Positions 1,225 to 3,989 of a stretch of DNA of 64,000 bases are shown here, one piece after another. The position numbers and the translations under genes are program-made. The notes below the pieces were generated by a model. That model ran no database searches, was not told the origin of the DNA, and saw only the letters and a program-made list of their open reading frames with translations. How positions within the stretch are numbered: position 1 is the stretch's first letter; every line of letters starts with the position of its first letter. Origin of the DNA: Bradymonadia bacterium (GTDB taxonomy: Bacteria > Myxococcota_A > Bradymonadia > UBA7976 > UBA1532); assembly GCA_049318805.1 (NCBI GenBank), contig JBMOFP010000005.1, positions 960 through 64,959 of the forward strand, in the 5' to 3' direction.

Positions 1225-1974
1225 TCAGCGAAGGACGAAGGACAGCAGCGCGCCCAGGCCGGCCGCCGCCAGCACCGCACCGGCGTAGGCGACCCAACGC
1301 GGCGTCTGCGCCCGCGCGGCGCCCTTGCCCTTCGGGTCGACGAGCAAGCAGGGCACGTTGCCGAAGTGGATGCGGTCGCCGAAGCGCGCCCGGGCCGAGG
1401 TCACGCGCTTCCCGTTCAGCCGGGTGCCGTTGCTGGAGTTCAGGTCCATCAACGTATAGCTGCCGTCGTCCTGCTTCTTCAGCCGCGCGTGGTGCCTCGA
1501 GACGGAGGTGTCCGCGAGGGTGATGTCGTTCTCGTCGGTCCGACCGATACACGCGATCCGTTCGAAGAGCATCAGCTCCCGGCCCGCCTGCGCGCCGTCC
1601 GTCAGCACGAGTTTGCCGTGGGCCTGCTCCGCCGTGACGATGGCGGTACTCAGGCCATCCTGTGGCGCACGCATGCGACCGGTCGCACGCTCGATGTAAA
1701 GCCTGTAGCCTCCGAGACGAACGCGGCTGCTCTCGGTGATCGGCGACGAGCCGGTCAGCGGGTGGTCGTCGAGCACGACGCCGTTGGCGCTCCCCAGGTC
1801 GTGCAAGACGACGCCGGTGCTCTCCAAAGACAGCCGCGCGTGGTGGCGAGAGATCGTCGGCGCGTCCAGGACGAGGTCGTTCTCGCTGGTCCGGCCGATG
1901 CTGATGCTGCCCTCGAACAACGCGGTCTCGGCGACGAGACCGCCGCGCTCGTCCTCGACGACGACGACGAACAC
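1225..1974 (-). CDS. Tandem-FHA-domain protein with C-terminal transmembrane anchor
   Basis: There are two FHA signatures: GR-x-SENDLVLD…SRHHARL…NGVVL and GRTDENDITLAD…SRHHARL…SSNGTRLNG. The C-terminal stretch WVAYAGAVLAAAGLGALLSFVL is hydrophobic. The gene lies 6 nt downstream of the FHA–ATPase gene on the same strand. Confidence 0.8.
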   Translation of the reverse strand: MFVVVVEDERGGLVAETALFEGSISIGRTSENDLVLDAPTISRHHARLSLESTGVVLHDLGSANGVVLDDHPLTGSSPITESSRVRLGGYRLYIERATGRMRAPQDGLSTAIVTAEQAHGKLVLTDGAQAGRELMLFERIACIGRTDENDITLADTSVSRHHARLKKQDDGSYTLMDLNSSNGTRLNGKRVTSARARFGDRIHFGNVPCLLVDPKGKGAARAQTPRWVAYAGAVLAAAGLGALLSFVLR

Positions 1975-1980
1975 GCCGCC

Positions 1981-3858
1981 TTACCGGAACAGGTGGGCGT
2001 CCACCGAGTGGCCGAGGCTCTGCGCTTGTTGCACGAACGTCGGCACGTGTCCGGTGGCGCGTCCTCCGGCCCCGTAGACGTCCTGGAGTTGACCCCCCGC
2101 CAGCTCGGAGACCTGGGTGACGCGGACGCTTCGGTCCGCGTTCCGCTGAAGCTGAACGAGGATGCGCGCCGAGTCGTTGAGCAGCGCGTCGAGCCGCTCG
2201 GGCGCGATGGCCGCGCCCATTGCGGCCTGTCGCAACAGCCGGGTGACGGCCTCATCGACGGTCGTGGCCTCGAGGCCGATGACACCGCCGTTGACCCCAC
2301 CGGAGAGGGCGCTGAGCGCGGAGAACGCCTCGGGCCCGCGACAGTCCGCGACGATGAGTCGGTCGGGGCGCATCTTCATCGCGTGCTGGACGAGGGCGCC
2401 GTTGTCCACACCGGGCGCGCCAGAGAGCGTGACGGCGTGGGTGCCGGCCAGGCGGCCGCCGCCCTCGACGGCGATGACGCGCAACCCGGCGGCGGCATTG
2501 GCGAGCGCCGAGAGGAACTCGAAGCGTGCATCGACGCAGTTGCTCGACACCACGATCGACGTGCCGACGCGCATCGCGAGCTCGAAGAACCGCGCGACGG
2601 GGTGCGCGATGGTGCCGCGATCGACCAGCATTTCGAAGGTCGCGGCGCCGACGCCGGGGCGGTCGATGGTCACGAACGGACCGCCGACGGCCGCGCTCGC
2701 GAGGTGAACACGCGTGCCGTCGGCCAAGACACCTTCGGCGAACGTTGCGGACTCCGACAGGGTGACGCCGGCGCTTCGGAGGAGGCGCGAGGCCGCGAGG
2801 CTGACCGCGTGCGCGCTCGAGAAGCGGACACCGGCCGACTCGAGCCCGCCGCCTCGAACGACGTGCACCTGCTCGGCACCATCGACGAGGACACGCCGGA
2901 TGGTCGAATCAGCGAAGAGGTGCGTCAACGGGCCGACCGCCACGACCTCGGACGCGATGAGCGCGGCGAGGCCCGCGGTGTCGGCACCGCCGGGCCGGTG
3001 CCCGCCGAGCTCCCGGAGCGCCTCTTCGGCCGCCGACTCGGCCCGTTGCAGGGCCGCGTCGTCCGCAGGGGCGCTCGGAGACCACTGGGTGGGCACGGCG
3101 ACCTGTTGCTGCTCGAGACGGCCGACGACCCGCTCGTGGACCGCCGCGAGCACGCTCGCGAGGTCGTTGCCGGGTGTCGCGGCGCGCGGAGCGCTTCGCG
3201 GTGCCGGAGCGGGCACGGCCGCGGGCGTCGAGGCCGGACGAGGTGCGGGCGCAGGGGCGGGGACGGGCACAGGCCGCGGCGCAGGCACAGGCGCCGGCGC
3301 CGGCCGTGGGGCGGGCGGCACCGCGGCGACCGGCGCGGGGGTGGGCGCGGGCGCCGGGGCGACGGGCACAGGGGCCGGCATCGGCGCGGGCGTCGGTGCG
3401 CCGATGGGTGCGGGCTTCGGGCGCGGCGGCGGAGGCGGCGGCGCGGTCCGACGGGGCGGCTCGGGCGCAGGCGCGGGCGGGGCCGACGGCACGGGCGTCG
3501 GGGCACCCTGAGACTGCGGGACCGGGGACGGCGCGATGGAGCCGTCGCCGAGGTCGGCGGCGGCGCCGTCGAGCGCCTCGACCGTCATGATGAAGTCGCC
3601 GATGTAGATCTTGTCGGACGACTTGATGACCATCGGCGACGCGATCTTGCGGCCGTTGACGTAGGTGCCGTTCGTCGACTTGAGGTCGACGATGATGAAC
3701 TTGCCGTCCTTCACCACGATGCGGCTGTGGCGCTTCGACACGTTCTGCTTGGGCAGGATGATGTCGTTCCCCTGCACGCGGCCGATCGTCACCTCGCTCT
3801 TGGTGAACTCCTGGCGTCGGGGCTGGCCGCCCTTCTCGTTGATCACGACGGCGAACAT
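1981..3858 (-). CDS. FHA domain + Pro/Ala-rich linker + degenerate CpaF/TadA-type (T2SSE/VirB11-like) ATPase domain; predicted pseudo-ATPase
   Basis: The N-terminal domain is FHA (GRVQGNDIILPKQNVSKRHSRIVV…STNGTYVNG). A PAPAPxPAP low-complexity linker of about 110 aa follows. The C-terminal 380 aa align along their full length to CpaF, for example GPLTHLF…IRRVLVDGAEQVHVVRGGG…, HLASAAVGGPFVTIDRPG and MKMRPDRLIVADCRG. At the Walker A position the sequence is IVVSSNCVDARFEF, and there is no GK[ST] anywhere in the protein. The Asp-box reads VEGGGR and the His-box reads SGGVNGGVIGLEAT. On the minus strand the gene has an AAGGAG ribosome-binding site and a TTGACA -35 element. Confidence 0.85.
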   Translation of the reverse strand: MFAVVINEKGGQPRRQEFTKSEVTIGRVQGNDIILPKQNVSKRHSRIVVKDGKFIIVDLKSTNGTYVNGRKIASPMVIKSSDKIYIGDFIMTVEALDGAAADLGDGSIAPSPVPQSQGAPTPVPSAPPAPAPEPPRRTAPPPPPPRPKPAPIGAPTPAPMPAPVPVAPAPAPTPAPVAAVPPAPRPAPAPVPAPRPVPVPAPAPAPRPASTPAAVPAPAPRSAPRAATPGNDLASVLAAVHERVVGRLEQQQVAVPTQWSPSAPADDAALQRAESAAEEALRELGGHRPGGADTAGLAALIASEVVAVGPLTHLFADSTIRRVLVDGAEQVHVVRGGGLESAGVRFSSAHAVSLAASRLLRSAGVTLSESATFAEGVLADGTRVHLASAAVGGPFVTIDRPGVGAATFEMLVDRGTIAHPVARFFELAMRVGTSIVVSSNCVDARFEFLSALANAAAGLRVIAVEGGGRLAGTHAVTLSGAPGVDNGALVQHAMKMRPDRLIVADCRGPEAFSALSALSGGVNGGVIGLEATTVDEAVTRLLRQAAMGAAIAPERLDALLNDSARILVQLQRNADRSVRVTQVSELAGGQLQDVYGAGGRATGHVPTFVQQAQSLGHSVDAHLFR

Positions 3859-3890
3859 GAGGCTCCTTGGGGGTCCAGACGATGGCTGCG

Positions 3891-3922
3891 AATATATGGG
3901 CCTCGCGGATCGCAGGTGTCAA
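3891..3922 (-). promoter_or_regulatory. Putative sigma-70-type promoter for the FHA–ATPase operon (-35 TTGACA, -10 TATATT/CATATA)
   Basis: On the minus strand TTGACA is read from 3922-3917 and TATATT from 3896-3891. The spacer is 18-20 nt. The start codon (3858) lies about 35 nt downstream and is preceded by AAGGAG. The site sits in the 131-bp divergent region shared with pfkA. Confidence 0.35.
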
Positions 3923-3989
3923 GATTGCGGGGCGGGCGTATCCGTGCGAAGTCCATCGGGCGAGGGTGTGGTTTCCGGCGGAGCGACTT

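Follow-up and report, generated by a model that had tools for sequence, protein, structure and literature searches.

A KilF-type FHA protein with a replaced CpaF ATP site and its membrane-anchored FHA partner in a Bradymonadia bacterium

Layout of the operon

The stretch of DNA considered here, called the window below, comprises 64,000 nucleotides from a Bradymonadia bacterium (NCBI GenBank assembly GCA_049318805.1, contig JBMOFP010000005.1, positions 960 to 64,959 of the forward strand). Close to its start it carries two adjacent minus-strand genes. The upstream one, gene A, encodes an N-terminal FHA domain that is joined by a Pro/Ala-rich linker to a complete CpaF-type fold in which the catalytic motifs have been replaced; the downstream one, gene B, encodes two further FHA domains followed by a C-terminal transmembrane (TM) anchor. 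Judged from sequence, the pair is a non-catalytic relative of the KilF and KilD proteins of myxobacteria. Its features are the following.

1981..3858, minus strand: gene A, 625 amino acids (aa); KilF-type FHA domain, Pro/Ala linker and putatively dead CpaF-fold domain (from the open reading frame, Pfam/NCBIfam, phmmer and AlphaFold2 (AF2)/Foldseek)
1225..1974, minus strand: gene B, 249 aa, starting with GTG; tandem FHA domains and a TM anchor at the C-terminus
3559..3858, minus strand: gene A FHA domain, residues 1-100
3139..3558, minus strand: gene A linker, residues 101-240, ~140 aa
1984..3138, minus strand: gene A CpaF-fold domain, residues 241-625; three-helix bundle, N-terminal domain (NTD) and ATPase-like domain
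2521..2547, minus strand: Walker A remnant SSNCVDARF, residues 438-446
2452..2469, minus strand: Asp-box remnant VEGGGR, residues 464-469
2335..2376, minus strand: Arg-finger and Walker B remnant KMRPDRLIVADCRG, residues 495-508
2263..2304, minus strand: His-box remnant SGGVNGGVIGLEAT, residues 519-532
1699..1905, minus strand: gene B FHA domain 1, about residues 24-92
1354..1554, minus strand: gene B FHA domain 2, about residues 141-207
1231..1299, minus strand: gene B C-terminal TM tail anchor, about residues 226-248 (hydropathy scan)
3859..3989, minus strand: intergenic region of 131 bp, common to the divergent pfkA gene

Both open reading frames are present on the strand and at the coordinates given in an initial annotation that was made from the sequence alone, and the description of gene B in that annotation, as a tandem-FHA protein with a membrane anchor, agrees with a Pfam match to two FHA domains (E 5e-37) and with a hydrophobic stretch from about residue 226 to 248. 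The stop codon of gene A and the start codon of gene B are separated by 6 nt, and the GC contents at third codon positions (GC3) of the two genes, 0.88 and 0.91, match those of neighbouring genes. The linker contains 38% Pro and 25% Ala, with 6 Thr and 7 Ser residues; its Pro/Ala-rich character had been recognized, but its length is about 140 residues (101-240) instead of the 110 that were proposed. Within this linker (3139-3558, minus strand), a polyproline segment of the type (A)PPPPPPRPKP is kept in all full-length family members, and the rest varies freely (alignment A1, columns ~140-160).

Expression of the operon had been predicted from a ribosome-binding site and a -35 element. An AAGGAG ribosome-binding site is indeed present at 3863-3868 upstream of gene A, and a TTGACA hexamer at 3917-3922. 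The promoter itself did not hold up: the best -10-like hexamer, TATATT (3891-3896), lies at a non-standard spacing of 20 nt from TTGACA, and a consensus scan called no minus-strand sigma-70 promoter. Scanning for intrinsic terminators gave no terminator.

The CpaF fold and the replaced ATP site

The proposal that the C-terminal part of gene A has a complete CpaF/TadA-type fold is borne out by sequence and structure comparisons, with profile scores that fall on either side of the curated cutoffs. The TadA model of NCBIfam, TIGR03819, is matched by residues 273-584 over positions 17-339 of its 340 (E 5e-35), at 121 bits where the cutoff is 373. The Pfam T2SSE model scores 32.9 bits (cutoff 24.9), covering residues 469-566 alone, and a VirB11 model reaches 56 bits against a cutoff of 250. 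In a phmmer search of the PDB, CpaF of Caulobacter crescentus was found with residues 297-589 (E 8e-27). An AF2 model of residues 241-625, for which a 60-sequence alignment served as input, has a pLDDT of 92.9 and a pTM of 0.85, and its top Foldseek matches in the PDB are the CpaF structures 8rjf, 9e24 and 8rkd (E 3e-28, TMq 0.73); FlaI, archaeal afGspE and VirB11 come next. With CpaF, the bifunctional Tad pilus motor of C. crescentus, gene A thus has the fold in common from end to end, and structural residues are retained, including the equivalents of R223 and E308 and the MRPDR segment. The two proteins differ at the N-terminus, which is disordered in CpaF and occupied by the FHA domain in gene A, and in the catalytic residues, as K287, T288, E312, R347, E357, H374 and R217 of CpaF are all substituted. 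With the roles and numbering of CpaF residues taken from its cryo-EM description (PMC12019362), the positions correspond as follows.

Walker A: CpaF G281-T288 (GGTGSGKT), gene A S439-F446 (SNCVDARF)
Walker A glycine: CpaF G282, gene A N440
Walker A Lys: CpaF K287, gene A R445
Mg ligand: CpaF T288, gene A F446
Asp-box Glu: CpaF E308, gene A E465 (kept)
Mg-coordinating Glu: CpaF E312, gene A R469
Interchain Arg finger: CpaF R347, gene A K495
Walker B Glu: CpaF E357, gene A D505
His box: CpaF H374 and H382, gene A V522 and E530
NTD Arg finger: CpaF R217, gene A V377
CpaF R223: gene A R383 (kept)

At the level of motifs, the Asp box (I/V)EDxxEL has become VEGGGRL, the Walker B motif GEVRG reads ADCRG, and the His box TGHDGSxxTxHAN is replaced by GGVNGGVIGLEAT. 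The loss of all catalytic motifs had been read correctly in every detail in the initial annotation, and so had the position of the former Walker A segment: the AF2 model puts SSNCVDARFEF at the junction of strand 434-439, loop and helix 442-455, which is the Walker A topology, with the predicted P-loop collapsed to a 2-residue turn between these elements. A non-canonical P-loop elsewhere in the protein, which would have called for a different interpretation, was not detected either, as neither [AG]xxxxGK[ST] nor GK[ST] occurs anywhere in the 625 residues. Since the former P-loop contains an invariant Asp, an Arg has taken the place of an Mg ligand, and neither the Walker B Glu nor the two histidines remain, we infer that the gene A protein neither binds nor hydrolyses ATP.

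It could still be argued that gene A is an ATPase or a nucleotide-binding switch that uses a non-canonical site, since R445 is a conservative replacement of the Walker Lys and E465, R383, R497, D499, R500 and R507 are retained. This is highly improbable in view of the missing glycine scaffold of the P-loop and the invariant D443 inside it, the replacement of the Mg ligands T288 and E312 by Phe and Arg and of the Walker B Glu by Asp, the loss of both His-box histidines and of the Arg fingers R217 and R347, and the collapse of the P-loop that the model predicts.

The altered site is a stable property of a family. A word-indexed search retrieved 14 clusters at E <= 1e-68, with canonical CpaFs as the next matches from E 1e-34, and identical catalytic replacements were found in all 14; with a profile search of 1.84 billion representatives, the core family grew to some 30 clusters (50% identity). 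N440, D443 and R445 are invariant in the family. Scanning of GTDB species genomes yielded intact orthologues, down to 39% identity, in 15 species, all of them uncultured Myxococcota known from metagenome-assembled genomes (MAGs) and labelled Myxococcales, Bradymonadia or Nannocystaceae. A gene for a protein with two FHA domains and a TM segment (2xFHA-TM) lies directly downstream of the gene A orthologue at each of the 15 loci. Conservation of the FHA plus degenerate ATPase architecture, and of the pairing with a tandem-FHA gene, in other Myxococcota had been put forward as a check on the initial annotation, and both are kept. The best GTDB match to gene A is 61% identical, and the organism from which the window derives is therefore not among the GTDB representatives; for the protein of gene B, a 100% identical one is on record in an NCBI MAG named 'Bradymonadia bacterium'.

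For the pseudo-ATPase domain, ratios of nonsynonymous to synonymous substitution rates (dN/dS) of 0.10, 0.12 and 0.24 were obtained (Nei-Gojobori; pairs with an unsaturated dS of 0.36-0.73). The more divergent in-family pairs were taken for this purpose, as comparison with the 99%-identical contig L028 is uninformative (8 differences). When 28 family members were compared by position with 242 canonical CpaFs, 29 structural positions appeared conserved in both sets, and just 8 positions (N440, R445, G468, K495, D505, G520, V522 and G528) were switched, i.e. conserved in each set with different residues. Each of the 8 belongs to one of the ATP-site motifs (Walker A, Asp box, Arg finger, Walker B or His box), and fixation at these positions is 85-100%, the pattern of an ATP site that was rebuilt and then frozen. 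The possibility that the pair is a decaying pseudogene or an annotation artefact without function, which the disappearance of all catalytic motifs and the position of gene A outside any secretion locus might suggest, is refuted by these conservation data and deserves practically no credence: the reading frames are intact in 15 species, dN/dS is 0.10-0.25, a GC3 of 0.88-0.91 is typical of coding sequence in the genome of the window, the substituted residues are invariant, the partner gene is conserved, and the family counts some 30 clusters.

FHA domains and relationship to KilF and KilD

The fusion of the pseudo-ATPase to an FHA domain was confirmed by a Pfam match (PF00498, residues 23-87, E 2e-18). 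Signatures of phosphothreonine (pThr) binding are intact in gene A (GR...SKRH...TNG) and in both domains of gene B (GR...SRHH...ANG and GR...SRHH...SNG), from which all three FHA domains of the pair are predicted to be binding-competent. Most core-family members have an FHA domain that is 88-95% identical to that of gene A, and the most divergent member compared has one that is 81% identical, whereas identity of the ATPase-like domain falls to 34-55% across the same family. The FHA domain is also 81% identical to that of protein P0184 and 59% identical to that of P0154, both of which are ATPases with a canonical GGTGSGKT. Identity to the FHA domains of other FHA-CpaF proteins from Tad loci, such as P0015 and P0020, is at most 33%, and no match was found by BLAST between the FHA domains of gene A and P0018, which is encoded in an ordinary RcpC-secretin-ATPase-TadB-TadC locus.

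This FHA type leads to the Kil system of Myxococcus xanthus, a Tad-like pilus that is required for contact-dependent killing of prey; Kil clusters are rich in FHA proteins, and a single ATPase is described (PMC8460266; PMC12075869). The ATPase, KilF (MXAN_3107), has an N-terminal FHA domain, and its gene is flanked by those of the secretin KilC and of KilD (MXAN_3108), an FHA+TPR protein (PMC8460266). Killing pili of the Kil type occur in predatory Myxococcota and Bradymonadia. From published primers it can be read that KilF begins with MFLITLAEK, ends with MSIFRED and has an internal GKTTTL, which means an intact Walker A, and that kilD starts 8 nt past the kilF stop codon and begins with MATLVVR. 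The gene A protein begins with MFAVVINEK and ends with HLFR, and related proteins of its clade begin with MF(T/S)VTISEK and end with IFRE, a pattern that the KilF termini fit. KilF and gene A resemble each other in the N-terminal FHA domain on a CpaF-type body, in the FHA-domain gene a few nucleotides downstream, and in terminal sequence signatures. They differ in that KilF has an intact Walker A and is essential for pilus polymerisation, and in that kilF adjoins the genes of a prepilin peptidase (KilA) and a secretin (KilC), whereas gene A is an orphan with all catalytic motifs lost.

Loci with active members of the clade provide the link between the two arrangements. In L037, the order is secretin, the P0184 ATPase and a 700-aa protein with two FHA domains, a TM segment and a helical region, with a Ser/Thr kinase gene 5 kb away; in L036 it is FHA protein, secretin, small protein, the P0154 ATPase and a 2xFHA-TM-TPR-like protein. 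Gene B is homologous to the partners in L033, L034, L036 and L037. Its match in the 700-aa L037 protein comprises residues 1-254 (28% identity, E 8e-24), and gene B ends, one residue past the TM segment, where the 415-aa post-TM domain of that protein begins. Gene B and these KilD-like proteins occupy the same downstream slot and have a tandem FHA followed by a TM segment; the helical TPR-like C-terminal domain of 170-415 aa is missing from gene B. On this sequence evidence gene A is taken to be a KilF-type FHA-CpaF with its ATP site replaced, and gene B the cytoplasmic 2xFHA and membrane-anchor half of a KilD-like partner, without the post-TM TPR domain. In the initial annotation no characterised T2SSE-fold pseudo-ATPase with an FHA input domain was known. 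An FHA-CpaF architecture paired with an FHA gene is, however, not unprecedented, as it matches the KilF-KilD arrangement (PMC8460266), with active pairs near secretins in L036 and L037. What is new is the dead, orphan derivative only.

Several relatives show less complete changes. The P0400 family, of Bradymonadaceae type and annotated as 'Flp pilus assembly complex ATPase component TadA', occupies the same syntenic slot as gene A, with a 2xFHA-TM gene downstream, MlaC/OEP genes convergent, and a KilF-type FHA that is 55-71% identical. Unlike gene A, it still has a Lys in Walker A (GPTS[SA]GK[ST]) and a Glu in Walker B, but the counterpart of R347 has already disappeared; its partner retains the post-TM domain. 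Locus L034, also of Bradymonadaceae type, has a Walker A of GPTSAGKT, a 432-aa partner, and MlaC/OEP convergent as in the window. In L033 the Walker A reads GAPGSGRST (Lys to Arg), and PP2C, kinase and further FHA genes are present 5-10 kb away.

Among the sequences sampled, loss of the Walker A motif is confined to this FHA type. In a sample of CpaF-like sequences that was gathered with queries from the KilF-type clade and is biased accordingly, GK[ST] is missing at the Walker A position in 37 of the 69 proteins with a KilF-type FHA (defined as at least 45% identical to that of the window), versus none of the 34 with another FHA. At least four sequence-distinct degenerate states can be discerned: S-S-N-x-x-D-x-R, G-A-S-A-S-A-R-D, G-G-x-G-A-G-V-G-T and G-x-P-G-S-G-R-[ST]. 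Because the loss is restricted to one FHA clade and took these distinct forms, it suggests that catalysis, and not the FHA domain, has repeatedly been dispensable in the KilF-type clade, and the distinct states may stand for independent losses. Other degenerate lineages are likewise orphan (L031 and L032).

Some further loci and proteins of this kind were encountered. In L035 (10001-16284), the gene of P0449, an FHA-CpaF-like protein without a Walker A (GGAGAGVGT; FHA 70% identical to that of the window), precedes three prepilin-like (N_methyl) genes and one for a 777-aa protein. Downstream of the pair in L033, at 5-10 kb (15164-20552), there are genes for an FHA and double-zinc-ribbon protein, a PP2C phosphatase, an FHA-trypsin fusion and a zinc-ribbon Ser/Thr kinase, a four-gene run that looks like a candidate cognate phospho-signalling set. 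P0029 (414 aa, from a 209-kb NCBI contig) is a CpaF-like protein without FHA and unrelated to the KilF-type clade; its site is partly degenerate, with GGGNSGR, in which Arg replaces Lys, with GDVRG, and with no histidine in the His box. Between two and four CpaF-like domains in tandem, mostly with an intact GGTGSGKT, are found within single polypeptides in P0125 (1156 aa), P0126 (1605 aa), P0132, P0134, P0138, P0139, P0147 and P0165, which may either be secretion-ATPase subunits joined covalently in one chain or stem from fusions made in gene calling.

Genomic surroundings and possible function

The gene A/B pair is an orphan module, detached from pilus genes. Convergent MlaC and OEP genes follow it in most loci. 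Regarding its function, we tentatively favour, at somewhat less than even confidence, a role as a non-catalytic KilF-KilD derivative that serves a Kil/Tad-type machine, encoded at another place in the genome, as a pThr-dependent scaffold or decoy. Docking on the same phospho-ligand or platform is the simplest model, since nearly the same FHA domain occurs in active KilF-type motors. Through the three FHA domains, one protein being membrane-tethered, phosphorylation by a Ser/Thr kinase would draw the pseudo-ATPase, a soluble protein, to the inner membrane, with pThr marks possibly placed on Thr-Pro (TP) sites in the linker of gene A. At the membrane the inert CpaF-fold body could act as scaffold or decoy for the machine, where the dead protein may compete with active KilF for a common pThr docking site or platform, or may nucleate assembly. 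A scaffolding or regulatory role was already suggested in the initial annotation; the pseudo-ATPase, the FHA fusion and the operon partner on which it was built are substantiated, and the role itself is the most reasonable reading of them.

The Fha1-PpkA-PppA pathway of the type VI secretion system (T6SS) of Pseudomonas aeruginosa is cited in PMC8460266. It places a secretion machine under FHA and Ser/Thr-kinase control. The likeness lies in the use of FHA domains as phospho-dependent assembly switches for an envelope-spanning machine, and in the presence of kinase, PP2C phosphatase and further FHA genes near related pairs (L033 and L037). The T6SS is a different machine, its FHA protein is not a pseudo-ATPase, and there is no kinase gene near the pair in the window.

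Four points weigh against a scaffold or decoy for a Kil/Tad-type machine. Genes for a secretin, RcpC, TadB/C, prepilin peptidase, Flp pilin or a Ser/Thr kinase are present neither in the 64-kb window nor within 10 kb on either side of any family locus. As to KilF and KilD of M. xanthus, the comparison extends to gene order, annotated domains and the few residues read from primers, 9+7 for KilF and 7 for KilD. M. xanthus KilD is given in the papers as a cytoplasmic FHA+TPR protein, whereas the homologues considered here have a TM segment. Finally, the counts of Walker A loss come from the biased sample mentioned above.

The main rival explanation, which is possible but which we hold to be rather unlikely, is that the pair shares this origin and was repurposed as an autonomous pThr signalling scaffold at the inner membrane, without a pilus machine, for example as a multivalent FHA/pThr hub tied to envelope functions. 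It would account for the orphan state of the pair in every locus examined and of the other degenerate lineages in L031 and L032, for the reduction of both proteins (gene A without catalysis, gene B without a periplasmic domain), and for the convergent MlaC/OEP genes, which are retained even in the distant L034 where MlaC is just 27% identical. However, with an identity of 59-81%, the FHA domain has stayed close to those of active KilF-type ATPases linked to secretins, which points to a common ligand, a different degenerate lineage adjoins three prepilin-like genes (L035), and conserved gene order within one phylum is weak functional evidence.

A connection to glycolysis was implied by the adjacency of pfkA, with which the pair shares its upstream region. 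A divergently oriented pfk gene is adjacent in the window and in L005, L008, L012, L019 and L028/L029, but not in L001/L009, L004/L011, L018 and the more distant L034, so that the adjacency is local synteny and was rejected as a functional argument. In all in-clade loci with upstream sequence a pyruvate kinase gene is located at 3-5 kb. FHA regulators of metabolic enzymes do exist in Actinobacteria, namely GarA and OdhI, and both are among the phmmer matches in the PDB. Nevertheless, a GarA/OdhI-like regulator that binds phosphorylated phosphofructokinase or pyruvate kinase encoded next door is very improbable: apart from the inconstant position of pfk, the OdhI model NF041660 gives 41.9 and 84.6 bits for the two proteins versus a cutoff of 200, the combination of a CpaF fold with a tandem-FHA protein and a TM anchor is unlike the small, single-FHA GarA, and homologous pairs with active ATPases adjoin or lie near secretin genes, not glycolytic ones.

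Other genes around the pair were considered as possible partners. A ParA/MinD-like gene 3-5 kb downstream was rejected as a CpaE/TadZ candidate; the copy in L032 is an ApbC/Mrp protein (317 bits) and the one in L028 a generic ParA/MinD protein without CpaE-specific signal. The window also contains, at 29085-50917 on the plus strand, a Glt-type gliding cluster with genes for a GltC-like protein (415 bits), a 1170-aa TPR protein, a GltE-like protein, a CglF-like protein (88 bits versus a cutoff of 90), a GltG-like FHA/TonB-C protein (393 bits), a further TPR protein and a giant TPR protein of 4027 aa that resembles GltI/AgmK; none reaches its equivalog cutoff, which makes them divergent homologues. 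A link of this cluster, which is 25 kb away, to the pair was dismissed as coincidental, as the similarity to GltG is at the level of FHA domains only and, in the other loci with annotated flanks, the 10 kb around the pair do not contain the cluster. At 9499-12865 (plus strand) there are genes for a PilZ protein, a small ORF product, an HDOD/HD protein and a GAF-sigma54 enhancer-binding protein (EBP), followed by dnaJ and mutS. This PilZ-HDOD-EBP block, which may be a regulatory unit linked to cyclic di-GMP, is syntenic in L001, L004 and L028, relatives in which gene A is just ~47% identical, and no evidence was found that relates it to the FHA pair. Directly after mutS lies a gene for a XerC/D-type tyrosine recombinase (17117-18088, plus strand), and two divergent sulfatase-domain proteins, the first with a MopE-type metal-binding motif, are encoded at 20285-24769.

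A full-text search of the literature did not reveal a pseudo-ATPase among type IV pilus or CpaF-fold secretion ATPases, and a dead KilF-type protein would be one in a fold for which none was found described. For databases, the loss of Walker A in several sequence-distinct ways in the KilF-type clade means that many Myxococcota and Bradymonadia entries named 'CpaF/TadA pilus assembly ATPase' cannot be motors. The FHA proteins of the Kil/Tad-like killing pilus are suspected to be signalling parts. It is conceivable, even if we consider it an outside chance, that the CpaF-fold ring in Kil-type machines of predatory Myxococcota has a second, non-motor role that is gated by pThr, in which dead KilF paralogues, their FHA domain very highly conserved and their ATP site repeatedly lost and then fixed, form with their tail-anchored 2xFHA partner a stoichiometric plug or decoy that keeps the pilus platform or the shared pThr docking site in the off state until it is displaced by kinase signalling upon prey contact. 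If true, these bacteria would possess a pseudo-enzyme checkpoint for contact-dependent killing.

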